Assembly: GCA_964016885.1 (NCBI GenBank)
Contig: OZ024742.1
Location: forward strand, 307,272,001-307,336,000
Length of the DNA: 64,000 nucleotides
Direction of reading: 5' to 3'
From: Eledone cirrhosa
Taxonomy: Eukaryota
The stretch's first letter is position 1. Each line of letters starts with the position of its first letter. Positions 4,313 through 53,728 of this stretch are shown in pieces. The notes under the pieces are model-generated. The model saw only the letters and a program-made list of their open reading frames with translations. It did no database searches and was not told the DNA's origin. The translations under genes were made by a program, and so were the position numbers.

Positions 4313-6368
4313 TAGACATGCGCTATCCCGTCCAGGTCCATCCATGACAACCTCCACCTCATGCGATACATCATAGAGAGGGTTGGGAACGAACCCGGCT
4401 TTGGTGGGGCTCTGATCAACTTGGATCAATCTAAGGCGTTCGATAGGGTCGACCATGGTTACCTGGATGCGGTGCTAGCGGCGGCAGGCTTCGGACCCGT
4501 TTTCAGGGGCTGGATCACTGCTATGCACAGCAGCCGCATCTGCTCTAGGGTCAAGGTGAGCGGCTACCTCTCGGAGCCGTTCAAAATCGCGCGGTCCATC
4601 CGACAAGGGTGCCCTCTCTCCTCCCTTCTGTATGTGTTGACTCTCGAGCCACTACTGCGGAAGTTGGAGTTGTTGCAGGGCATCCCTTTGGAACCGGGAT
4701 TGCGGAAAGCGGTGTCAGCCTACGCCGATGATGTGACAGTAATGGTGTCGACGGCCTCCGAAATCGAGGCGGTCGGCACCTTACTGGAGGAGTACGAAAA
4801 GTTCACAGGGGCTAAGCTGAACCGGGACAAGTCGATCGGTTTGCAACTCGGCACGTGGAGGGGCAGACCGATGCCCTCTGATGGCGTCGTCGGACGCTGG
4901 ACGGAGGGCCCGGTGAAGTTGCTCGGGGTCTGGTTCGGACCGGACCTCCAGGTGGAGAAAAACTGGGCGGAGGTTACGAACAGGGTGTTTGCACTGACCC
5001 AGAAGTGGGCCAGTTGCAAACTATCCCTGAAAGGTCGGGCGGAGGTGGCGAACACTTATATAGCGTCCGTCATCTACTACCGCCTGACCGTAGTGCCCTG
5101 CCCAAGGGAAACCCTCACCAAGATGGAGCGCGCGCTCTTCTAATTCCTTTGGAAGGGGCGGGCTCCTATGGTGAGGAGATCCATCTGCTGTCAACACCCT
5201 TCGAAAGGAGGGCTGGGGATGCCGTGGCTAATGATGCGTAAACACGCATTAAGGCTACGGCACCTCTACGTATTCCTCACCGGACAACCGGTGTGGGCCC
5301 CGTTTGTGAGACGAACCTTTCCCAGACTCGTCTCACTCACCGAACTGCAATCCTGGGTCAAGCAGAGACCGAGAAAACTGGGCGCCTGGCACACTGAGTG
5401 TGCCCAGGCGCTCACCGCCCTCTGGCAGGCGGATCCGGTTATCAGTGGAGACTCCACCGCAACATTCTATAGAGGGCTGGTACGCAGCAGGTGCGACGAC
5501 GCCCTCGGAGAAGCCCTAGACATGGAGGAGGACGAACTGGCCAGCCTGTTCGGTAGGACATTCAGCCCGGGACCTATGGACAACTTCCAGAAGTCCCTGG
5601 CCTGGCAGTGCTACCGAGGGGCTTCACCCGTTCGAGAAAGGCTCTACAGACACGGGCGCCCGGGTAGGGACCCCGCCAAAAAGATCTGTCCCAGATGCGT
5701 GTGCGACGAGGAAACCGTTGCACACGCATTGGTACACTGCTCGGGCGTAGCCGATCTGTGGGGCTATGTCGAACAACTGCTGTCAAGGGTGGGACCGATC
5801 CGGTTGACCACCGAGTCTATTGTAATGATCAAGCCGCCTCCCCCCTTCAAAGATGAAGCAGAGGCGGTGTTTCTGTGCGTAATAGCCATGGCGAAAGAGG
5901 TTGTATGGTGGACGCGTCTGAAAGGACTGAGGTCGGGCGCCTTTCTCTCTGGCCAACAACTGGTCCGTTTCTTCCGATATCATTTCGGAAGAAGGATCAG
6001 GATGGAGAGAGAGGTGCTGCACCCCAGTCGTTTTTATGAAAGGTGGGTGAAAGTGGCGAGAATGGCCCGTGTGAATGGGCCTTCTCTTTACATAAGCCTG
6101 TAGGTGGAAAAGAGGAAGGAACGAGGGAGCACCCCCTCTCTGTGCTCCTGAGGAAAAGGGTTGCACACTTTTTTCGGGGGTGTGTGCGACCCCCCAAGGC
6201 GCCTCCTCTCTATTGAGGATTTTGTTAAAAATTTTATTTTTTGTTATATCTTATTTTATTTTTATATTTTGTTATTGCCTCCTCCTTATTGAGGACGCCT
6301 TTTTGTGTAAACTCCCCCCTTTGTACTTGTCCCACTTTTGATGCCCTAGTGGCAAATAAAAGAAACTT
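4313..6368 (+). mobile_element. 5'-truncated L1/Tx1-clade LINE: RT, CCHC zinc knuckle and 3' UTR
   Basis: LDQSKAFDRVDH, RQGCPLS, AYADD, GGLG, CPRC...HALVHC; a single in-frame TAA at 5141-5143; AATAAA at 6355; inserted in (TA)n/(TATC)n. Confidence 0.9.
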
Positions 6369-19743: not shown

Positions 19744-19868
<125 letters not shown>

Positions 19869-21189
19869 TAATTACACACACTCACACTATAATACATTAC
19901 TTTTATCTGTATTATATAACTAACATGTATGAATAGTATTTGCAGAATGCATTTAGTATTTTACTATTGCTTCAGTAAATTTAAAGTTTCATGGGAGATA
20001 ACTCTTCCATGCAATACCAAAAGATTTCCCATCCAAATTTATATGAATAAAAATGGCTAGTTTTATTAACCGAATATATTTGCCGTAAATCACTTTAACT
20101 ATTCTAATTATCCTAACTTTACTGCAGTAACAATAATTAGGAGAAAGTTCCGAACTACCATTACTAATATTATTAGGTGATATCGCAATTGATGTAATAG
20201 TAAATATGCAATTAAACTTATTGAATAAAGAGCTTATTTCACTAATGTAACAACGCATACCACCAAGACACGTTACCAAGACACATTACACACACATACC
20301 ACACAAACATACACACACACTAGCATCACAAATATTGTACATAAACACACGTATAACGCACAAACACTCACGGCCATCACGTAAATACTATGTATAAACA
20401 CATACACATACATACACGCTCACAACACATTAACACCACATAAATACTCCACACAAACACACTCCATAAGCACGCACATAGATACTACACAAACACTTGC
20501 TCACAGCATATATATACACGCATATACGTATTACACATATACTCTTTATACAAATACACACTACATAAACACACATTCCAAACAACCACACACATACGTA
20601 AATGCATACACACATACATCACACCACATCACGTCATATTAAACAAACACACATACACCATACCACATCACGTCACATTACACAAACATACACACACATA
20701 TATGATATCACACAAACGCACACATGGAATTAATAATTAGATATAACAGCAACATGAACAACAAAAACATCAGCTACGAGTCAATGAGTGTGATGCTTCA
20801 TAGTTCTTCGCCTGCTAGAAATAGCAGTCGAGTCTCTCTCAAACCATAAATGTGTTTCTTAAAATTAGTCACATTGGATAACGTAGTCCGAGGTATACTA
20901 CGCTAGGTATAAAAGATACGGAGTGGTCATGGATATGAGGAATACTTTGGCCAATTAGAACTTACCATATTTCTAATGAAATACACTATTTAATTGTTTC
21001 AATTAATTTGGAAAAAATAATTAAAAAAATTTGGATAAATTCAATAAAATAACACGTTAGCAAAGACTTAATATATAGAAAGCCCTTGTTTTACAGTTGA
21101 CCGACTCAGCATCGTTGCCCAAATTATGTAGGCCCGGACGGAGTAAGGAAGTGTTCTCTGGTGTAAAGGAGCCCATATGTATACCGCCA

Positions 21190-22315: not shown

Positions 22316-22778
22316 TGATATGACTTGAACGTTTATCAGTTAAAAGTCCTATGGCGAGTGGTGACGTGTGCAGACCTAATCAGTTAGAAGCACACAATTA
22401 CAAATCTGCACATAGGCGGCAGGAGTCTTATCTTAATATCGTTGTTGTGAGTTCCTGTGACCGGGACTAACTTCGATGGAGGCATTCGTGTCTGAGCAGC
22501 CCTGTTAAAGAGAACATTGCTCCCCCAGGGTGTTGGAAAGATGCTACAAGAAAAGATGCACTAATCATTGTCTGTCGCATCAACACTGGTTAGTTCCCTG
22601 AGGCTAACGGTGTTTCATTTTAGGTGGAGCATAAAAGATGATAGATTTGCCAAATTAATTGCAAAAGAGCGAGTTAAGCTCAACCTTTATTGTTGGAATG
22701 TTTGAACAATTCTGGACCAGAATTCATCAAACCGACAAGAAAGAAGAACTGCACTGGCAACTAAGGAACCTCATAGAC

Positions 22779-22833
<55 letters not shown>

Positions 22834-22837
<4 letters not shown>

Positions 22838-24218
22838 AAATACGTCCCTCATCAGTGATTTGCCGAAGATCATAGATATTTCATTGCATTAAAAATCATA
22901 TATCTCACTTCGGTACGATAATAACCAAAATAAGTTATTAGGACAATTAAAACGCGTAAAGCGAGTGAGACAGGAGAACAACAGAAAAGATAGTATAACG
23001 TTGGAGAGAAACAAGCTTCAAAAATTATTCTGTTAGCGTAAGCTAGGTGAATATATGAGCGCTAGGGAAAGAATAGTCCAGCACGAACGAAGGCCATTGA
23101 GCAGAGAGATCATATAGATTTTTAATGCAATGAAATATCTATGATCTTCGGCAAATCACTGATGAGGGACGTATTTTATTACATGTTACCATGTGCTACC
23201 TGCAGTATTTTTCTCTATATTTTAATACATATATTTACCACTGCGATTCTGTGTTTTTTTCTCTCTCTCTTACTGTTCCCCCATTCTCTCTGTTTCTCCC
23301 CCTCTGTCTTGTCCGTTAACTCTTCCTCACACTTTCACTCACTCACTGTTTTTCTCCCTCTTCTCTTCATTTCATCCTGCACTCACGGACGCTATTTTTT
23401 CTCTCTCTGCTCAATGGCCTTCGTTCGTGCTGGACTATTCTTTCCCTAGCGCTCATATATTCACCTAGCTTACGCTAACAGAATAATTTTTGAAGCTTGT
23501 TTCTCTCCCACGGTATGCTATCTTTTCTGTTGTTCTCCTGTCTCACTCGCTTTACGCGTTTTAATTGTCCTAATAACTTATTTTGGTTATTATTGCACCG
23601 AAGTGAGATATATGATTTTTAATGCAATGAAATATCTATGATCTTCGGCAAATCACTGATGAGGGACGTATTTTATTACATGTTACCATGTGCTACCTGC
23701 AGTATTTTTCTCTATATTTTAATACATATATTTACCACTGCGATTCTGTGTTTTTTTCTCTCTCTCTTACTGTTCCCCCATTCTCTCTGTTTCTCCCCCT
23801 CTGTCTTGTCCGTTAACTCTTCCTCACACTTTCACTCACTCACTGTTTTTCTCCCTCTTCTCTTCATTTCATCCTGCACTCACGGACGTTATTTTTTCTC
23901 TCTCTGCTCAATGGCCTTCGTTCGTGCTGGACTATTCTTTCCCTAGCGCTCATATATTCACCTAGCTTACGCTAACAGAATAATTTTTGAAGCTTGTTTC
24001 TCTCCCACGGTATGCTATCTTTTCTGTTGTTCTCCTGTCTCACTCGCTTTACGCGTTTTAATTGTCCTAATAACTTATTTTGGTTATTATTGCACCGAAG
24101 TGAGATATATGATTTTTAATGCAATGAAATATCTATGATCTTCGGCAAATCACTGATGAGGGACGTATTTTATTACATGTTACCATGTGCTACCTGCAGT
24201 ATTTTTCTCTATATTTTA

Positions 24219-24225
<7 letters not shown>
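22834..24225 (+). mobile_element. 497-bp tandem non-coding element (family F): inverted partial copy 22834-23108, then about 2.2 tandem units, flanked by (TA)n
   Basis: Identical 102-aa pseudo-ORFs 497 bp apart (23141 and 23638); third start at about 24135; left block is the reverse complement of about 23400-23677. Confidence 0.85.
23124..23175 (+). ncRNA. Candidate permuted (type II-like) hammerhead in each family F unit (also 23629-23662, 24126-24159; minus 22849-22882)
   Basis: GAAA-TATC-TA-TGAT-CTTCGG-CAA-ATCA-CTGATGA-GGG; stem I capped by a cUUCGg tetraloop; stem II pairing weak. Confidence 0.45.
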
Positions 24226-24250
<25 letters not shown>

Positions 24251-25046
24251 TGCACCTCTCAGAAATGCGTCTGTCAGGTGAAGATCAGTTGACAGAAGTA
24301 TCATCAAAATATATAATTTTATGGCTTGGTAAGCCTAAAGGCGAGCGTGGAGAAGGAGGGCTTGGTTTTGCTATCAGAACAACATTGGCAAAATATTTAC
24401 AGTGCTCTTCCTCTAATAATATTGATCGCATAATGAAGCTACTTATTCCACTCATGTGTGGACGTTTTGCGACAATCTTTTCATTTTATGCTCCAACGCT
24501 CCAACTCTCCAAGCCAATGAAGAAACTGTTATGACCTATGAAAGCCTTCATACTGACATTACTTCCACACCGAATAATGACAAGCTAATACTTCTTGAGA
24601 AGGGGAACAGTGGATATAATCTTCTCTGCGGGGAAGATGCATAGAACAGCAACTGCCTTTATATTAAGTTTTTATAGACTTGACCAAGGCTTTTGATACA
24701 GTCAACAGAGAAGCCTTATGATGACCGAACTCTGGACAATTAACACACTACATCCTTTGGTTTATCTTATCACCAACTTTGTGTACCTGTAATATCCCGC
24801 CTGGTGCGGATTTACCCGGCTAAAATATTGTTACGTAACAATTGAGAGCTGCATCAGGTATGCACATAACGCTTACGAAGTTTTATGGAAAATTAGAACC
24901 TGTTTCATATATATTTAGATACCAATACTACATTGGGTACCTGACTACGTGATCCCAATTCTTAGAGAAGTACAACCGACGTGGAGCGCTAAGGATGATT
25001 ACACCCTAGTTTATTGCTTGCGGTGTTGCCAGTGCATTGATATAAG

Positions 25047-25319: not shown

Positions 25320-25788
25320 ATACAATATCGGAGAAAGCTTTTTAGCGATACTCCGGCCAAATTCCAACTCACTCAACAAACATTAGGAAATAAGTGATTA
25401 TATTCCCAATTATACGTTCGGGGTGCTAACTAAAAGTATTGCGTGGAAAATTGGCTGTATTATTTCATATGAGACATATCTAATATATCTCTTCCCAGAC
25501 GGACGTCTCGTTTCATTATAGGATTCCTACAATTTGGGTGAAATTATACCAATTTATGTAGGAGCTGTATACCATCAATAGATATATATTCAAGTGGGCT
25601 CCTATAATTCATCAGTGGGTGCCCCAATAATACTAATATTGATAATCTAACCAACATCAGTATTTAGCGATAATCACCATCCTCTATGCCTGAGGTATCT
25701 GTCAGGTTGCCAGTCCAGCAGTTTTAAAGAAGTGCTCAAACTGATTAAAAAAATGAGGAAGTAAATTACCGCCAAAAAAACAATACAT

Positions 25789-25819
<31 letters not shown>

Positions 25820-25823
<4 letters not shown>

Positions 25824-27220
25824 AGCGGGTGGTGAGATCACGAATAACCCACTTTCTTGAAAGCAACGGCCTGCTGAACTCCAACCAACATGGATTCCGT
25901 AATGGAAGGGACTGCCTAACGCAGCTCCTGCATCACTTTGACGATGTTTTGAGAGCCTTGGGAGAGGGCTCCAACACTGATGTCATCTACCTTGATTTCA
26001 GCAAGGCCTTTGATCATAAGATTCTACTGAAAAAACTATCTAATGTTGGTGTCTCTGGAAGGTTACTACAGTGGATCAAATGTTTCCTGACAGGCAGAAA
26101 CCAGCATGTTGTAGTCGAAGGAGTAAAATCAAGCCCTGCCAATGTCAACAGTGGCGTCCCACAAGGCACTGTGTTGGCACACTTCTTTTCATCATCTACA
26201 TTAATGACATTACTGACATCATCAAACACAGTAACATCAGAATCTTCGCTGATGATTCCAAGCACCAAAGGGTCATCAATGAGGTGGGTGACCGGACTTG
26301 CCTTCAGTCAGACCTACTGGCTGTTATCCAATGCGCAGAGATGAATAATATGCTGTTGAATGAGGATAAATTTGAACTAATCCACTTTGGAAAAAAGGAT
26401 GCCCTGAAACTACCATACTCTCTTCCTTCGGGTGAAACTCTAGTGGCTTCCAATAACATCAGAGACTTGGGAGTAATTGTGGACAACAATATAAGCTGGG
26501 CCACTCATATAAACAGCAAAGTTGATATGGCCCGCAGAATGTGTTCCTGGATTCTCAGAACTTTCCAGTCGAGAGATATCCACACTGTTGTCCTGCTCTT
26601 CTCCACTTTTGCCCGACTCCACCTTGAATACTGTTGTCCACTGTGGTCACCCCACACGAAACAAAGTATCATGAAAGTTGAAGCACCCCAAAGGTCAATT
26701 ACAAAAAAGATAGTTGGCATGATAGGCCTTGACTATTGGGGTCGATTAGAAAAGCTCAAACTTTATTCTCTTCAACGTCGCCGTGAGCGCTACATTATCT
26801 GTATGATGTGGAAAATATTCCATCAGCTTAGCCCAAATGATGCTGGCATCACCTTTAGTGTACACCCAAGGCTTGGGGCCCGTGCTATCCACCCACGACA
26901 AAAATCCCTCTCGCATCACATAACAACAATACGGCACAATTATTTCACCTCAATTGGCCCTGCACTCTTTAACATTACACCAAAACACATCAAAGCAGAG
27001 ACAGACCCCATCAAGTTCAAGAAGTCTTTGGATAAATTCCTTCAAGAAATCCCGGATAAGCCTCCTACACCCGGATATGCCTCCGTAAACAATAACTCTC
27101 TGCTCGAGTGGGCCATGGTGCCCAAACACTGATTTGTAAGACTTCGCCAGGTGGTGCTATTAAGTTAGACATGGCCTGGGCCAATACTGGCTGAAACCTA
27201 TCAAAGTTATCAAAGTTATA
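25820..27220 (+). mobile_element. 5'-truncated CR1-group LINE RT with a frameshift, inserted in (TA)n
   Basis: QHGFRNGRDC, YLDFSKAFD, SGVPQGTVL, IFADD, DLGVIVD, LEYCCPLWSPH, YSLQRRRER; tandem 3' tail TATCAAAGT. Confidence 0.9.
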
Positions 27221-31593: not shown

Positions 31594-32650
31594 TCAATGG
31601 GACCCTTGAACTTTATGGAGTCTAGCTAACTCTTTGACGCCAGGCTGGATTTTCGTAAGATGTAGCCGGTGATCTCCACATGTAATTACATTGTAGCGGT
31701 TGCGAGCCTTACTGTGCAGTCTGGAAACAGCACCAAACCTCCTCTTGACTAAGTATGAGCTTGGAAAAGGCAGAGAAAATCTCTTAGCCTCTGCATATAG
31801 GTGTGGAAATCGACGCTGAATTTCCTCTTGTATCCAAAAAAGGGGTTCACCTATTTTGGGAAATCTAATTTTGATCATGTCATCTGCTTGAAGTTCAATG
31901 AATTCTTTCTGAAATATAACGTCCAAATCATCAACGTTAGCTATGAAGGGATATGCTACCCACATTGGGATGTCCATCGGCAAAAGGTCGACAAACAGTT
32001 CTCCCATGTTGTCTTGTAGCGCACGGAAGCGAGCGGTATAAATCTGGAGTTGGTCATCGCTTACAATGTTTTGAACATTGGCGACACTAGGAAAATTATA
32101 AAATTCCCGTCCACAAAGATTCCTTTCGATGACATTCAATTTGGCCAGGAATGTTTTTCACAGCATTCCTTGCTTTAACCAAGGTGATCTTCTTCCCCTG
32201 CAAAGCCAAAATGACGCTATTGCATTTGTCGACGATGTCGGTGAGGTAGGCGCAGTTTTGCCTCACATCGAGGGTTTTCTTGTACAATTCTGTGTTGCGT
32301 CCTTGCAGAAACTCAATGATAGAGACGAACAGTTCAAAGAAGTGAGTAAGGCACTTGCCCTTTGAAAGCCACCTCACTTCATTATGAAGGAGAAACTTGA
32401 CAAATTCTTCGTCATTATCTTGGCACAGTTGCCGGAAAATTCGTTCATTGAGGGAATGCCGTTTGATAAAATTGATGACATCAAGGGCCACCTGCAAGGA
32501 CTTGCTCAGCGGCTTGCTGAGTTTCTTCGCAGCCAAGTGTTGTCGATGAATGACACAATGAACAACAAATACAGATAGATTTTCTCTCTTCAGAAGAGTG
32601 ACGAAACCCTTATGTTGGCCGACCATTGCTATTGCGTCGTCCGTAGCACA
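31594..32650 (-). pseudogene. hAT transposase C-terminal half (Charlie/Buster family), frameshifted near 32130
   Basis: TDDAIAMVG, HCVIHRQHLAAK, EVRWLSKG, FPSSYLV, ending GSH. Confidence 0.85.
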
Positions 32651-32654
32651 TGAT

Positions 32655-33180
32655 ACAATGTGTGTTGTATTTGGTCCTAGATGTATATATTACCTGCATG
32701 TGTGTTGTAGGTAGTCCTAGATGTATGTATTACCTGCTTATGTATTGCATGTGGTCCCAGCTGTATGTATTACCTGCTTGTGTGTTGTATGTGGTCCTAG
32801 ATGTGTGTATTACCTCCTTATGTGTTGTATGTAGTCCTAGATGTATGTATTACCTGATTATGTGTTGTATGTGGTCCTAGATGTGTGTATTACCTGATTA
32901 TGTGTTGTATGTGGTCCTAAATGTATGTATTACCTGCTTGTGTGTTGTATGTGTCCTAGATGTGTGTATTACCTGCTTATGTGTTGTATGTGGTCCTAGA
33001 TGTATGTATTACCTGATTATGTGTTGTATGTGGTCCTAGATGTTTGTATTACCTGATTATGTGTTGTATGTGGTCCTAGATGTTTGTATTACCTGCTTAT
33101 GTGTTGTATGTGGTCTTAAATGTATATATTACCTGCTTGTGTGTTGTGTGTGGTCCTAGATGTGTGTGCTACCCGCTTCT
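32655..33180. repeat. 40-bp minisatellite, about 13 copies, inside the hAT element
   Basis: Unit TGTGTTGTATGTGGTCCTAGATGTATGTATTACCTGCTTA. Confidence 0.9.
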
Positions 33181-38975: not shown

Positions 38976-41310
38976 AAAAAGTATGACCCTGACGGCAGAG
39001 CTCAAGCCGTTTCGACGGCTACTTCTGGACTAAATTAGAATTTTTAGCCTGGTGAATAAATAGCCGGACTTGTCAAGGGGGTACTTCCTTATATGGGAAG
39101 ATTGTAGTTGTCAAGAGGATTGGTTAAAATTTGTTGTAAACACAAATAAGTCTATCATGGCATTTTGGTGGGAGGTAGGGGTGGCTGAACTTGCCTGTAG
39201 AACAATAGGGGAGTGACAGGAGCGGTCAAGCGTTGAAAGTGATATGTATACAGCAGATTCTAAGGATAGTGTATGAAGTGGAGGAGGGAGGTTATAGAAT
39301 AGGTAAATCGAATGAGAGTAGGAGACAATAAAAGATAATAGAAATAAATAAAAAATATATAAAATTAGATAGTAAGAAATGAATAAAAAAAATTACAATG
39401 CTATCTTACAATTAGAGGTTAATAAGTTGAGAATAGAAAAAACTTGTAGAAATTGAGTAGTAACAAAACTGATACAAATTAAGGGGTTTAACACATCTGC
39501 TATAAGTAGTTAGTAAAACGTAATCGGCCAATTCTATCTTAAAATTACAGGGGTGGGGGAACTGATGCTACAGAGGCCCGATGGGCTGCATCGGGGTAGG
39601 CGAAAGGGGAAGAAAATAGGGGGTGGAAGGAAGTGATAGGATGAGACAGGGGGAAGAAGAAGACAAAGAGGAAAAGAAAAGAGATACATCTACCTATGTA
39701 AGCTGAGGTTTCCGCTAACTTATTCGGCAAGTGTGTGTGAGTGGGGGGGGGGTATCAGCCTTTGTCTAGCCACCCGGGTCGTTATGGGGTTTGAGGGTGA
39801 GGTAAGTCCTACGCAATCTGTGTTTGCATGCAGTTACCAGTTCGTCTTTCTTGTTTAGGAGTTGGTCCTTCGAAAACGGTACTTGTAATGTTTCCTCCGA
39901 GCATAAGTTACACGGACGGCGTCCTCCCGCGTAAGAGTTAGCTCTGGACAGTAAGCTCCAAGTGAGATTTTAGGTTATATTATTATCTTGGAGGTCCCAG
40001 ATGTGGCCCGAAAGAGTAGTGGCATGTCGCCGGAACGGGTTTCGGAAAGTATGTCGGTGTTGGTAGAGCCGGATCTTGAAGTAACACGCGGTTAATCCTA
40101 TATAAGCTTTGTTGGAGGTGTCCGTCCTCGCGTTGCACTGGTAGATCACGTTACGTTCTCGGCATTTGTTGTTGAGGGGGCACGTAGATCTATCAGGGCA
40201 GTTACACCTCCTGGTCGGCTCTCCACTGATGTCTAGGTTATTTCTTCCATAGGGGTTAAGTTTTTTTGTTGTTTGAGGAGACGATGTTTTGTGCGAAGCT
40301 TGGTGTGGTGCTGTAGTAGAGTTTGATGGTGTTTTTGTTGAATATGTTGTGGTAGCGGTGTTGTAGTGGGAAGTGTTTTTCGAGGAGTCTAAAGAAGACT
40401 TTCCCGATAGGTGTTGCCACCTCGGCATTATGGGGAGGATTGAACCACGTTACGTTGCGTTAGCGGCGGTGTCGCCTGCTGGTTCCGCTAAGGGAAACTG
40501 AATAAAAGGATATTTCCTCTCGGAAGCCACTTCGCTTGAGGACCTGGTTGTAATGAGGCGCGTGTTCGTCGAATATCTGCTCATTAGCGGACAAACGAGA
40601 TATGCGGAGGAAGATGTTTTTAACCAGGTTATTTGTGATGTTTCTAGGATGGTTAGAGCGGCGGTGGATGTAGTGCAGGTTGTCCTTTGGTTTCCTGTTT
40701 GGGTAGTACAGATCAATTTCGAGGTTAAGGGTAACGTCCAGGAAATTGACTCGGGTTAGGGACGTTTGTAGGGTGATTTTAAATCCCCAGTCCCGGAAGA
40801 AGTTGATTAGTTGTTTACGGACCCGGTCTGTACTACTGGGGTTGTACTCTTTGAGAGCGAGGAGCCCAGCATGCCGGTACAATCTACCGCCGAATGCAGG
40901 AAACATTTCGGTGAGTTTAAATAGTAGGAATAATCCAATAAGATCTGTGATCTCGGCCGAATCCGTCGCGCCTATACTGACCGCTCCACTCTCCCCCTAT
41001 TGTTCTACAGGCAAGTTCAGCCACCCCTACCTCCCACCAAATGCCATGATAGACTTATTTGTGTTTACAACAAATTTGAACCAATCCTCTTGACAACTAC
41101 AATCTTCCCATATAAGGAAGTACCCCCTTGACAAGTTCGGCTATTTATTCACCAGGCTAAACATTCTAATTTAGTCCAGAAATAGCCGTCGAAAGGGCTT
41201 GAGCTCTGCCGTCGGGGTCATACTTTTTCCCATTTCCCACTCTACTACCCTAAGTATTGAGTACTCTGGTGCGTTATGGTCCATCTGGTTCCTTACCACA
41301 ATTCCTTTGT

Positions 41311-44956: not shown

Positions 44957-47900
44957 TTGAGTTCGTCTGTGTCGACGTCGCAGAACTCCAGCTCACTCTC
45001 AATGCGAGTAACAATAACAACAACAACCACAGTGGTAATAATAGAAATAATACATGTAGCAACATTAATGATAGACACAGCAACAACAACAACAAAAACA
45101 AGAAACATAATAAAAGTAACAACCACAATGGTAGAAATAACAGTAACAACAACAATAACGGTGGAGAAAACAACAACAATACATCTAACAATCACAGCAA
45201 CAATACATCTAGCAATCATAACAATAATAATAATGTTAATGATAGGAACAACAACAACCACCATAATAACAATAATAGCAACACACACAACTATGACGAT
45301 GGATATAATGACAATCCCTTAGAGAAACTATTCTTCAATCCAGCTGACAAAACATATAAGATGGGTAATATCTATCCTACGAGGTTACCCTTTAATAAAA
45401 GGGTTTGTATACCACAACAAATAGATGACGAGACAGAGGCACAGTTCACCATAGCTAGAAATAAGATTAGACAAAGAGTAGACCGGTATACTAAGAGACA
45501 AAGCAGACCAGAGGTCCAACAACTTGGGAGGAAACCTGTAGAAGGCTTGGTTAGCCTCAAGCAGCGCACAAGGGATGGTGAGGTAGTATGTCTACCCACT
45601 GATAAATCTGGTAGGATGTCAATAGACAGCATGCCGAACTACATCAAGGCTATGAAACCCCACATCACCAATACGAGCGAAATTGCATAGCAAATACATG
45701 ATGGGAGAGAGAAAATCCTCAACGCTCACATGATGATGTGGACCGACATCCTAAAGCCAAGCAGATGCACTGCCAACAACTTCCAGGCGTCTAACAATGG
45801 CATACCACCCTTGTATGGACTCCGCAAAGACCATAAGACAGTCGACGACCCGACAACAGGACCACCAACAAGACCTGTATGTGGAGCAAATATAGCTAGC
45901 AACTACAGGTCCTCCTACTTCCTCTCAATGGTTATACGCCCCATAATCAAGATGTCCCCATAGGTATGTGACAGTACAGAGGACCTCCTCAGCAGAATCA
46001 GTGAGTACAACAAAAACAAAAACCTATGCAACTGCATAATAGGCAGTATGGATGTGGTATCACCGTACCCATCCATTAACATTGATTTTGCTGCTGTGGA
46101 AAAATGTGTGGAGATGATCATTGAGAATGAGGTGGAGTTCTGCGACGTCGACACAGACGAACTGGGCCTCCTACTTAGACTTACCTATGACACTGACTAC
46201 CCAGACAGCCATGACCATAGACGTTTCTGCCCCAGTAGACCCAGAAGAGGTAGACCCCCCCCCCCCCCACCATAACCTCAATGTCAAAAAAGACTCCCAT
46301 GGGAAGGTGGATTGGGTGTACCAAAGCTATACGGACCCCCCCAAAACAATGATCAGGTAAGAAAAATGGTCGCACATGCAATATGGGATAGTATCAAAAC
46401 TACCCTAAAGGGCCACATATTCAAATTCAACGAGAAGATCTACACCCAAAATGAAGGAGCAGCCATTGGCGTCAGCATAGCTGGTGACGTTGCCAAACTT
46501 TTTATGGTATGGTGGGAAAGGAGACTCAAAGATCTCCTTGATGAGAGCTCCATAGACCTCATCATGTACTCTCGTTACGTAGATGACATCAATATAGTAA
46601 TAAGAACACCCCCACTAGAGAGTACTAACAAGTTTGATTTAGAACGTAGCACAATGGAAAGCATCCAGCAGATAGCTAATTCCATACACCAGAGTATAAC
46701 TGTAACTATCGACTACCCTTCCAAACACCCTAACAATAGACTGCGTGTATTAGACATGGAACTCTGGATTAACACTATAGAAAAGAGAGCCCAAATTCTC
46801 CACTCACACTACGCTAAACCCATGGCCTCCAAATACCTGATACTCAAAACCTCAGCAATGTCCAGTAGTGCTAAGTTTAATATTCTGATCGCAGACTTGG
46901 TACGAGTGATGAAGAACGTGTCCCGCATGTGCGACCCAACAGAAATGGAATGAAACATCCAACACTTCATCAACCGCATGCAGTTCTCTGGCTACAACCA
47001 AAGAGCCAGAATAAGAGTATACGAAGGAGCCACGGAGAAGTATAAGACCCTCATAGAACTGGACATGAAAGGAATTTGCCCATTATACAGGAGCAAATCA
47101 TGGAATAGTTTAGATAGGACTAGATATAAGATAGGGAAAGCCACCTCATGGTACGATAATCAGAGATACCAGAGTGTCATGTTTGTGGACGCTACCCCTG
47201 GAGGAAAATTAGCTAACCAGTGTAGAAAGGCCCTGACAAAGACCCATTAAACATTAAGGTGGTAGAAAAGCCAGGAACCACCATAAAATCCCTGATCAGC
47301 AAAACCTACCCTTTTAAGAAAACCCACTGTACTAATAGGAAATGTATTAGATGTAAAATAAAACCCCGGATAAACTGTAAAACTAGAAACGTAGTCTATA
47401 GCATAAGATGTACAGAGGGTACTTTCAGAAACATGACAACAACATACATAGGCGAGACAGCTCGTAGCATAGGTGAAAGGATAGACCAACACTGGGGAGA
47501 ACTAAAAGGACGAAAAATGGTTCAGTACTATACGAACATGCCAGACAACAACACGACGGTAACATAGACAACATAGAAATTAGAATAATATCTAAACATA
47601 GAAATGACCCAGCAGATAGGCAAATCAGAGAGGCCAGCGAAATAGAACTTAGAAGGCCAAGGCTAAACAAAAAAAAATGAATGAAATAACAACAACACCC
47701 AAACAAACAATACTGACCTAAGAGAAGTATAAATAAATACATACACAAGCACAATAACAACAAACACATATAAACACACACTAGTAAACTAAGATAGAAT
47801 ACAATAACCAATACACAGTCACCCAAACACGAACACACATCAAACACTATACACACGCGCAAACGCATGCGTAGAGAAGACAAAAATAAATAAATAAATA

Positions 47901-50191: not shown

Positions 50192-53100
50192 AGGATGTTT
50201 ATACATGCATAACTCCACGCAATTATTTGCATGTAGAAAAAAAAATTACATGGGCATCTGATGATTGAAAGTTGCCAAAGAATGTGTATTTCAATGGGAA
50301 GTTCGCTGCTTCACTACACCATGACTAAGTAATCTATATTACTATCACCCTTCTCTTTATAACTCACAACCATTTATTTGGATTCACCTGGTGCTGAAAA
50401 GTAATAACAATTACATCAACAATAATGATGAGTGTGCCCATCGGAAAAATATTGTTTTTTTATAACATTGCATACGAAGCTATTTATTGGAAATGGTTAT
50501 ATTTATATAAAACAATTGCATGGCAAATCTTTGTAAGAACCTTTGTTCAATTATGTTCAACACACCAAATATATGACACGAATTTGTTATTTTACTAAAT
50601 CCCTCCAAAGTCTGAAAATTATAAGTAGTGTCTTTCCCAAGAAACATGGGAACGAAAGGATTAATGAATTTTGTGATTCTCTATTAGAATTTTGTGATTC
50701 TTTATTATTGTCAATAACTACATATCTGATACACCTTACTGACTATGATGTTGTCACAAAGAAATACTCCAAAGAAACAACGAAACAACGGCAGTAATGA
50801 AAGACATTTTAAAAAGAAAATATAGAGATACAGAAACAGTCCTAGCTTTACACACATAATAAGAAACTGTCCATTACTGACTATTGAACCTTATATGTAC
50901 AATTGAAGAAATTCGATGTTTTTCCAGACCTATGGCTTCAGACTTCACCAGACTTAGTTACATAAGACAACCGAATCTAGAATTGTTACGAAAACTTCAA
51001 AGCGGTTACAACTACTTCCTAATTCGTAAACACGACTATTATTATATAAGCCAAAAGCAACAAATGTGTGCCAAAGCGAAATTAAATTGTTGTGGCCGTC
51101 TCTTGTAAGAGCAAGAACCATATTGTCAGAGGAGTGTTGCGTTGTCTTTTTTGTCCCTCCTCAAACTAGACGGGCTGTTTCTGCGGGAGATGAACAGGAA
51201 AGCGAATAATTGCGTGGGATTTGTCAGGCATTTTGAATTCAAGCAATCTCCACATTCTTTCTGGAGCACTCACATATCTGGCATCTAGAAAATTCTTGAT
51301 TTCATCATGAATTATGACTTGCTGTCAGTTGCTTCGCTGATGTTTACAGTTATGGAATCATAGCCTTTGTATATGTATTTATACACATATTTCACTGAGT
51401 GGATGAAGGCGCAAATTTCTAGATTGACGTGGCAGTTGATATTTGTTATAAGGTACAACATATCGGTTGTCTACTACTTTCGGACAACGTTCAATGTTGA
51501 ACTCGGACGTCTTCTGGGGGATAGATAACTATCTCGGGTTTTAAAGGTTTTCTGTTGAAATTGTTTGGGAAAGTCTTTTGAGCAGTTGTTATTTTCCATG
51601 CATGGCGCGTTAGAGTTTTTCTCTCCCAGTGCATTACTGGTACTTTATTTTATCGACCCCGTAAGAATGAAAGGCAAAGCTAACCTCGGTGGGATTTGAA
51701 CTCAGAACGTATAGGGCCGTAACTCTATTCTGTAACTTTATGCAACACTATTATTAATAATAAAAGTTACTATAGTTATGATGAGTGCCGTTGTATTAGG
51801 ATTGTTCCTTGTTGGACAAGTAATTTCGCCAACGAAGTCAACTGACTATAAATTGCTTGTCTAGTTTGAGGAGGGACAAAAAAGACAAGTGCTAGAAAGA
51901 GCTGCGCAACGCAACACTCCTCTGACAATATGGTTCTTGCAAAATGATGAAAATGCAAGACGATATCTATATGTAGACAACCCTTATTATCTCTACAAAA
52001 CCCAGCAGATTTTTCTTCTTAGATGGCTCTGGTAGTACAGGAAAAATGTACCTCTACAGTACCTTGATATCGCATTTGAGTCGTCAAGGAAAGAGTGTTC
52101 TCTCATTTGCTACAACAGGCATTGTGGCTGATCTATTGCACCAAGAAAGAACTGTACACAGTGGCTGATCTATTGCACCAAGAAAGAACTGTACACAGTG
52201 GCTTTAATCTCCCAGTCCCTATCTTGGAAAACTCTACATCACCAACGAAGATTCCATCACAGCGCTCTGAAACATTAAAATTAGCTGACCTAATAATAAT
52301 TGATGAGGCATCAATGCTTTCAGGAAATGCATTGAGTTGCTTTGATCTACTGCTAAAGGAAATAATTGTTTCTACTTTTGGCAGAAGGCCAGCAATTACC
52401 CAGTGTATTACTGGTACTTTATTTTATCGACCCGGTAAGGATGAAAGGCAAAGTTAACCTCGGTGGGATTTGAACTCAGAATGGCAAGGGCCGTAACTCT
52501 ATGCGTCAAAGCATGGTGTCCGACCCTCTACCGATACTGCCAATCCATCGCCATTGCTAAAGGAAATAATTGTTTCTACTTTTGGCACAAGGCCAGCAAT
52601 TACCCAGTACATTACTGGTACTTTATTTTATCGACCCCGTAAGGATGAAAGGCAAAAGAAATAATGAACTGCCATAAGCCTTTCGGCGGTAAGGTTCTCT
52701 TTCTTGGAGTGACTTTAGGTAAACTGCGCCGGTTATTCTGAGAGGGTCAAATGCTGCTATAATTGAATCTTCTACCAAATATTCTCCTCTGTGGACAGAT
52801 GTGACAATTTTTACTTTAACTGAGAATATGCGAATAAATGGACAAGAAGAATTCACCGCATGGCTTCTTAGCATAGGAAATGGAACAGTCACTAATGATG
52901 TCGGCTTAGATGAAGATCTAATAAAAATACGTGAAACCATGATTTCATCTGGAAATTTGATAAGAGACATATTTGGCGACGACATTTCTGTAGTAAGTAT
53001 CGGAGATATTGATGAAACTTCAACAAAAATTATTTACTAAAAGATAAAGATTCAATCGAACTGAATATCAAGATATCACTTCTAGATATAGACTTACAGA

Positions 53101-53728
53101 TATATGAAAGTGTTGATGTGCTGGTTGACGAAAGTGCCGAGAATATCATGAATTATCCGGAAGAGTATTTGAATTATCTGATGCCGTTAGGCATGCCCCC
53201 ATATAATCTAGCACCGAAGAAAAATTCCATTGTGATGTTGCTGAGAGATTTGGATCCTGCTAATGGCTTGCTGAATAGTACTCGATTTTTGGTTTTATTT
53301 TCTAATGAATCTTATATTCATGTAATAATCATTACTGACAGTAAAAAAGGAAATGAAGCTTATATACCACGTCCGAGTGAAACAGATCTACCCTTCAATA
53401 TGAGTAGACTGCAGTTCCCTGTGATACCAACTTTTGCCATGACCATAAACAAATCACAAGGACAGAGCCTCAAAAAAAGTTGGTATTTACTTGCCACCTT
53501 CCATAGTCAGTCATGGCCAGCTTTATGTGGCCTTAAGTTGTACAAGAAGGAAGGAAAACTTAAAAATTCTTTTGAAGGAAACAAGCAGTCAAGGCACATT
53601 AGTTGTAGAAACTTTTCACAAAAACATTTGTAATAAAAGAATTATTAAACTAAAAACTTGGTTTTGTACCCTTTTTATATATAAAATACTACAATTAACG
53701 TCATTTTTGACGGCACGGAGCCAGCTAG
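50190..53728 (+). mobile_element. Decayed, rearranged Helitron (5' boundary uncertain)
   Basis: PIF1 motifs DGSGSTGK, IIIDEASM, PFGGK, LTENMR, RLQFPV..FAMTINKSQGQSL, SHGQLYVALS; 3' end GGCACGGAGCC hairpin followed by CTAG|T; Rep-like segment inverted at about 51100-51625. Confidence 0.8.
52367..52657 (-). mobile_element. Full SINE plus a truncated tandem copy inserted in the Helitron helicase
   Basis: TSD TGCTAAAGGAAATAAT repeated; helicase frame resumes as EIMNCHKPFGGK. Confidence 0.85.

Follow-up and report, generated by a model that had tools for sequence, protein, structure and literature searches.

Did a young non-coding repeat write its own (TA)n flanks? An insertion nested in a dead retrotransposon of Eledone cirrhosa

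Targeting of microsatellites conceals how Penelope-like elements (PLEs) prime and whether they duplicate their target sites (PMC8557442), and insertions nested in sequence of known ancestral state, which are rare, offer a way in. One such insertion lies in the window, the 64,000-nucleotide stretch of Eledone cirrhosa contig OZ024742.1 (assembly GCA_964016885.1, positions 307,272,001 to 307,336,000, forward strand) that was analysed here. It is flanked by a (TA)n tract on each side, and the question is whether these tracts were written by the element or were already present when it arrived. A sequence-only reading had argued that the site was once short and that the element therefore made the tracts.

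The host of the insertion is a decayed non-LTR retrotransposon, which lies in two collinear halves from ~22332 to 24720 of the window; by its motifs, we take it to belong to the RTE clade. As the sequence-only reading had proposed, removal of ~22782–24250 rejoins RTE-type sequence: the flanks are collinear, and 33 paralogues span the site uninterrupted. The insert itself is ~1.4 kb in size and is composed of one inverted arm, a 10-bp junction, one truncated unit and two full 497-bp units. The features are:

22332..22781, plus strand: RTE-type non-LTR retrotransposon, 5′ part, with degenerate APE endonuclease start; 70–80% identity to 40 genomic paralogues
22782..22834, unstranded: left (AT)26.5 tract, 53 bp, perfect; adjoins the 3′ end of the inverted arm
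22835..23109, minus strand: inverted 5′-truncated arm, unit positions 174–453, tail-less; five private substitutions in two clusters
23110..23119, unstranded: arm-to-arm junction TCATATAGAT, 10 bp
23120..23228, plus strand: first direct unit, 5′-truncated, about positions 388–497
23229..23725, plus strand: complete unit of 497 bp, non-coding; a lone CUGAUGA at unit position 428, without canonical hammerhead
23726..24222, plus strand: second full unit, one difference from the first, 44-bp tail at its end
24223..24250, unstranded: right (AT)14 tract, 28 bp, perfect; adjoins the 3′ end of the direct arm
24251..24720, plus strand: RTE-type copy continued, collinear with the left half, with frameshifts and stops; 67–83% identity to paralogues

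The tracts, put earlier at about 50 and 28 bp, are thus perfect runs of 53 and 28 bp. Genome searches with each host flank returned ~40 paralogous matches of 67–86% identity, the closest being 80–83% identical, i.e. ~17–20% divergent. The left host frame reads ERRTALATKEPHRLHI and the right one LHLSEMRLSGEDQLTEV. Pfam PF14529 (APE-type endonuclease) was found in paralogues L039 (E 3e-6) and L082 (E 2e-4); in the Pfam scan it was not matched by the 95-aa fragment in the window. The 33 distinct paralogues that were fetched and that cover the site without insert serve as the denominator for expansion at the focal site. The site core is exactly ATATAGATAT in 12 of them (in the context CTGC-ATATAGATAT-TGCAG or similar), TAGAT is kept in 20/33, a perfect (AT)5 to (AT)5.5 run of 10–11 bp occurs in two, and none has a longer run. 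Alignment to these paralogues bears out the claim that the ancestral site was short and refines its 'short ATAT' to the 10-bp ATATAGATAT. As reconstructed from the paralogues, the ancestral site is a 10-bp proto-microsatellite, a single G>T change away from (AT)5. The threshold for dinucleotide slippage is reported at 4–5 units (PMC3812793), so this one change, present in 2/33 paralogues, would bring the site to that threshold.

The focal flanks are collinear with the paralogues and all unique flank sequence is kept; relative to the paralogues, however, the right flank is 2 bp short (gap of 12 = 10 + 2), so the rejoined frame is discontinuous. The proposed join itself stands. The host differs from its paralogues by ~17–20%, whereas the direct units of the insert are 100% identical (distance 0) to copies at other loci; the RTE consensus is therefore not the pre-insertion allele. 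Owing to this time gap, the paralogue sequence dates to the RTE insertion and not to the repeat insertion, and the argument from a short ancestral site to element-made tracts skips the long interval between the two events. We also looked for further expanded RTE copies at the site. A genome-wide pattern for the left junction gave the focal copy as the only long one; a pattern for the right junction gave no long copy and is blind to the focal copy owing to its 2-bp deletion. The two paralogues with (AT)5 hardly expanded: in all the far longer time open to them they added no more than one unit. Among the 149 loci examined, the focal one alone sat in collinear old coding sequence, and a tblastx search for additional coding hosts added none.

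Reads were available from runs X1–X3, which represent one sample with a word depth of 5–8, and their contigs break at TA runs. The left contig extends 30 letters beyond 22772 and the right contigs start 19 letters before 24251; these values are overhang lengths only and are as expected for long tracts on both sides. No contig bridging both flanks was found in X1–X3, which is weak at this low depth. The left junction was without usable coverage in three RAD runs, as was the right flank in one, and an empty allele of the site was recovered from none of these reads. No short empty allele was found in the three runs of the one sample, again at low depth, and this was counted in favour of a long tract before insertion. 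At window position 24307, the X2 and X3 contigs have G, as do most paralogues, and the assembly has A; on this G, the sample may represent another haplotype.

Within the insert, the left arm ends at unit position 453 and the right arm at 497, so that both tracts adjoin inferred priming ends. The inverted arm carries five private changes, against a single difference across the direct units (~1,120 bp; Fisher p 0.0015), and its variant is unique genome-wide at up to 1 mismatch. A separate subfamily as source of the inverted arm was rejected, as the variants are private to the focal arm. The clustered substitutions in 22835–23109 may be sequencing errors caused by the hairpin, or this arm may have been copied with low fidelity.

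The junction between the arms, TCATATAGAT, includes CATATAGAT, which is the 9-mer of the host's empty site with the G included. If this were retained target, the site would still have been imperfect at insertion and both tracts would be new. We regard retention as improbable: the junction can also be read as GAGA microhomology of the two arms plus two inserted bases, the five other private changes of the left arm weigh against retained target, and target sequence between the arms was found in 0/13 other inverted loci. The inverted arms of L006, L024 and the focal insert (window 23109) all stop at a GA run at unit 172–174, a possible termination hot spot.

The 497-bp unit gave 1,203 first-look candidates genome-wide and 1,032 exact matches to its tail motif, an abundance of ~1,000 units. 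The survey covered 94 loci, of which 38 were top-ranking matches and 56 were taken consecutively along contig C1; L109 (a duplicate of L110), L137 (its array runs off the locus) and five listed C1 sites were left out, and L122 and L123, which are one duplicated insertion, were counted twice. Copies are 5′-truncated at varying positions across the whole unit and are often arranged head-to-tail, in arrays of up to ~11 units. An inverted 5′-truncated copy is present at the 5′ end of 14/94 loci, the focal one included; the remaining 80 have no inverted part. The 3′ ends form two clusters, at unit 445–455 (9/94) and at unit 485–497 (85/94), which fits an optional 30–40-bp tail, and they adjoin at least 11 bp of pure TA in all 94 loci. 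Naiad and Hydra PLEs are described with (TA)n preference, partial tandems, inverted 5′ copies and a 30–40-bp tail (PMC8557442), and the present family shows partial tandems, the inverted 5′ copy, the optional tail and the (TA)n bias alike. The insert is likely a young non-coding repeat mobilised by a Penelope-like retrotransposon.

With 5′ truncation, tandems, inverted copy, tail and (TA)n, the family is like the non-autonomous PLEs MRC1 and Chlamys-N and like EN+ PLEs (Craig et al. 2021, PMC8557442). Different from the PLEs described there, the present unit has no ORF, and an autonomous partner (RT plus GIY-YIG with common 3′ end) was not found among ~240 fetched loci. Membership in the Hydra clade was rejected, as the unit contains neither a hammerhead, said in that source to be universal in Hydra, nor an ORF; the mobiliser could still be a Hydra element. 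The Naiad clade agrees with the present family in lacking a hammerhead and in targeting TA, whereas the young age fits poorly, Naiads being described as long inactive in cephalopods (PMC8557442). The Rfam hammerhead is absent from the unit at E up to 5. The unit has one CUGAUGA; the 60 nt downstream of it contain no GAAA, though one lies 23 nt upstream, and shuffled sequences fold as well as the 3′ region does (z 0.09). Animal non-LTR retrozymes (PMC7229834; bioRxiv 10.64898/2026.07.22.740005) are likewise dispersed, tandem and non-coding, with units of a few hundred bases, and are proposed to be mobilised by PLEs; their defining feature, however, is that every unit contains a type I hammerhead, whereas the present unit has the CUGAUGA half-core only, and the retrozyme assignment was rejected. 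A TA-targeting MITE or MULE (MuTAnT-like) was rejected as well, on the varying 5′ ends and the 80/94 loci without inverted part.

The family also resembles the in vitro mechanism of the purified Poseidon protein PAc of Anolis (Frangieh et al. 2024, PMC11167929), which cuts and extends both strands of AT-rich targets and uses two RNA start sites bracketing the tail. PAc starts are reported to be without target homology; the present 3′ ends, different from these, fall at AU-rich spots (unit 445–455 and 485–497) that match the TA target, which suggests microhomology priming.

One relative of 82% identity lies beside the unit in L139. It was considered as the autonomous partner and rejected, because it is not coding: it belongs to a 522-bp non-coding sister family (3,301 candidates, 1,282 exact tail matches) that is built like the 497-bp family. 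The sister family (L139:3172-3450; L183–L242) and the loci L105, L148, L198 and L220 have in common a 3′ region with GAAA, in which CUGAUGA stands in a non-hammerhead order and a small hairpin shows changes that look compensatory. Some other TA-flanked families in the fetched loci have canonical-looking hammerhead cores. By their motifs, we take ORF fragments at L141:2889-4121, L177:1148-2116 and L144:2-1027 to be PLE-like RT or GIY-YIG; those at window 40463–40996 and 46276–46950 are presumably PLE-like too. A Pfam scan of the fragments in L141 and L177 gave no match.

How far the element itself adds repeat units can be judged at its own ends. Among the 24 copies ending at the first AT run of the unit, 14 show (CT)4–13 in place of the unit's (CT)2, and at least 6 of the 24 lost CT. 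No length change was found at 105 internal unit junctions, where one (CT)3 arose by substitution at equal length; host slippage of CT beside TA is possible, however, which makes internal junctions an imperfect control. Since the internal junctions have (AT)3 only, long TA is not carried by the unit. An origin of the CT units from pre-existing (CT)n(TA)n targets was rejected, as the 5′ side is without CT: none of the 14 expanded copies has more than (CT)2 within 150 bp of 5′ flank. Copies at distance 0 from a neighbour already have 4–13 CT units. In the sister family, (CA)2–5 was observed at 13/44 terminal ends versus 0/6 internal ones; in family A, the (CA)1 at the 497 end did not grow in 11 cases. 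The CT and CA gain is new repeat grown from a seed in the element; it may have come from the enzyme at priming or from host slippage by the TA run, which the data do not separate, and a CT seed in register with long TA could grow by host slippage. Other short duplications, of TTA and of 10-mers, also occur at 3′ ends. In L005, the last 8–12 bases of the element are repeated within the 3′ TA tract, with ~(TA)13 between the copies.

The TA tracts differ between the two ends. At 3′ ends the median is 34–39 bp and the minimum 11 bp; at truncated 5′ ends the median is 13 bp, with <8 bp in 25/80. The 3′ tract is longer than the 5′ tract in 62/80 insertions (p 2.6e-7), and in 27/30 and 19/24 sister loci; three loci of the sister survey were dropped because their 3′ tract fell below 8 bp (a 7-bp tract, an assembly gap and a mis-clustered locus). 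Filled sites total a median of 53 bp for truncated and 71 bp for inverted insertions (p 0.07 for the difference). The length-weighted background, taken over tracts of 16 bp or more, has a lower median of 38–43 bp, a difference that would be equally expected if the element preferred long tracts. Older insertions do not have longer tracts (rho −0.14, p 0.22, n 83). At least 12 bp of TA is present on both sides in 57/94 insertions.

Other loci provide evidence that long TA can precede insertion. Five copies of a related RTE subfamily have a TA seed near the 5′ end that measures 9, 14, 14 (L075), 9 and 10 bp, and the same type of seed is 48 bp in L082 and 47 bp in L083, with collinear flanks and no element; these two tracts were counted for long TA before insertion. 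Seed expansion without an element is thus seen in 2/7 copies (interval 4–71%), L088 being omitted for its ambiguous alignment. The solo tracts of 47 and 48 bp could instead have been left behind when flanking tracts recombined and an element between them was lost. Apart from the focal site, usable collinear empty paralogues were available for L143, L029 and L119 only, of 149 loci, and separately for L120. L143 lies in a local inverted duplication of 98.4–99.0% identity: AT extends over 61 bp in the empty copy, and the filled copy has 0 bp on the 5′ side and 56 bp on the 3′ side, which was likewise counted for a long tract that came first. Such insertion at the edge of an existing tract makes the 3′ bias explicable without synthesis. 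The empty paralogues of L029 have 37 and 135 bp of compound TA at 93–97% identity and 17 bp in older ones. At L029, L119 and L120, some or all empty paralogues have less pure TA than the filled site. At least 12 bp of TA was present at 44/80 truncated 5′ ends, which are unprimed, and this too was counted for TA before insertion. Among 222 clean tracts, both flanks could be identified in 34, most of which join the ends of different repeat families; with ends of other TA-flanked families as many of their neighbouring flanks, the tracts serve as shared landing sites. Current length is a poor guide to length at insertion, as L122 and L123 (C349), duplicates of one insertion spaced 13 kb apart with 13 mismatches in 2,235 bp, have 3′ tracts of 31 and 73 bp.

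Taken together, these observations lead us to favour, with moderate confidence, the reading in which the repeat landed in a TA tract already grown inside the dead RTE, split it in two and gained modestly at the junctions. Several observations speak against a tract that was long beforehand: none of the 33 RTE copies goes beyond 11 bp at the focal site, the (AT)5 paralogues hardly expanded, the arm junction includes the host 9-mer, filled-site totals lie above background, and across the family TA adjoins 94/94 3′ ends, yet 25/80 truncated 5′ ends have <8 bp. They lend weight to insertion at the short ATATAGATAT or at (AT)5, with a telomerase-related PLE reverse transcriptase re-copying the AU-rich start of its RNA and so writing both tracts. 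That account is unlikely in our judgement, for all that it draws on much of the above: CT expansion at 14/24 primed ends against 0/105 internal junctions with no source in the target, its presence in distance-0 copies, the terminal (CA)2–5 of the sister family (13/44 against 0/6), the TTA and 10-mer duplications, the longer 3′ tracts (62/80, and 27/30 sister loci), the absence of a rise with age, and the host 9-mer CATATAGAT at the arm junction. Against it, the empty duplicate of L143 already has 61 bp and solo tracts grow without elements; no other inverted locus (0/13) retains target, and GAGA microhomology explains the junction in an arm with other private changes; the CT seed may slip beside TA, and (CA)1 at the 497 end stayed static in 11 cases. 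Put more generally, a Penelope-type reverse transcriptase, sister to telomerase, would reiterate dinucleotides on a TA-ended primer to yield (TA)n, (CT)n and (CA)n, and would have turned a 10-bp imperfect site into two long microsatellites; to this we give only a minor share of belief.

The element might instead be a trigger only: a short-to-medium tract of (AT)5–10 is hit and partly duplicated as a target-site duplication, and host slippage regrows the halves. Fast length change after insertion is seen in L122/L123, shorter pure TA than at the filled site is seen in the empty paralogues of L029, L119 and L120, and MuTAnT, a Mutator-like element of Medicago, offers a precedent, since its empty sites have ~9 TA units and its filled sites ~15 on each flank (PMC4486113). 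We nevertheless consider it improbable, because both short halves would have had to expand greatly in a time too short for any substitution in the direct arm, the (AT)5 paralogues grew by no more than one unit, and there is no trend of length with age. Distortion of the tract lengths or of the arm junction by sequencing or assembly error in a TA-flanked hairpin is very improbable: the five clustered private substitutions and the mismatch between reads and assembly at 24307 would suit it, whereas the contig overhangs fit long tracts and the same pattern recurs at 94 loci.

Under the favoured reading, insertion into a tract already grown, the locus would have formed in five steps. An ancient RTE insertion carried ATATAGATAT in its endonuclease region, as the paralogues indicate. 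A G>T change, seen in 2/33 paralogues and presumed at the focal site, would have yielded (AT)5 at the slippage threshold, and slippage of the host polymerase, observed at another seed in related copies, would have lengthened it to tens of bases. A Penelope-type RT/GIY-YIG enzyme would then have cut the tract, and both ends would have primed cDNA on the element RNA; the back-to-back arms, with starts at the tail end (unit 497) and at an inner start (unit 453), have the architecture expected of such a product. Priming, or the time just after it, likely brought some additional units, and since then the length of both tracts would have changed freely. A seed would thus mature in a dead retrotransposon and then be hit and split, so that each insertion doubles the number of tracts. 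On this best reading the family mainly multiplies TA tracts through splitting, and it probably does not create them from nothing. The proposal that the elements make TA tracts accordingly keeps part of its force, in the unit gain at primed 3′ ends and in the two tracts that most insertions make from one.

The element type and the TA targeting are already known, and filled sites richer in TA than empty ones are reported for a plant MULE (PMC4486113). What is new is the terminal-only CT and CA gain and one nested site with known ancestral sequence; this is modest but testable. Repeat-unit gain at primed ends, which the present family shows, does not figure in the element descriptions of PMC8557442 that we drew on. 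Like MuTAnT, the present insertions are TA-flanked and richer in TA when filled; MuTAnT, however, belongs to the DNA transposons, its terminal inverted repeats are fixed and it duplicates 9 bp (PMC4486113), whereas the present 5′ ends vary and the units are tandem. The site also resembles microsatellite birth in L1 and Alu, where proto-microsatellites in dead retrotransposons mature by substitution and then slippage; birth at integration is there from poly(A) tails (PMC3812793), different from the present units with their (AT)3 at internal junctions. In what these sources offered, bioRxiv 10.64898/2026.07.22.740005, PMC9977147, PMC13282606 and PMC7229834 held nothing bearing on tract creation, and at the level of titles and abstract openings no report of telomerase-like stutter by a PLE enzyme was found.

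Such stutter has a cheap, testable signature in the (CT)n and (CA)n that primed ends have gained. Template slippage is known for some LINE reverse transcriptases. If the PLE enzyme does stutter, the TA load of the genome would feed itself, since each family has thousands of young copies and every new tract would become a target for the next insertion.

Several further arrangements were noticed around TA tracts. In L192:930-1390, a LINE fragment is inverted back-to-back with TA at both ends, and one arm stops at an internal coding CAG|TATA, as if a TA-ended primer had annealed inside the LINE RNA. L149, L100, L011, L059 and L129 contain many TA-flanked or TA-centred palindromic elements of other families, and short tail pieces are repeated there with TA tracts. 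Compound, mirror-like (CT)n(TA)n(GA)n tracts are common, as in L096, L097, L011 and window 19748–19870. Elsewhere in the window, at 4316–6100, 25757–27129, 31597–32689 and 53016–53630, lie transposon-like ORF fragments, which from their motifs we take to be L1/Tx1-like, CR1-like, hAT-like and Helitron-like.
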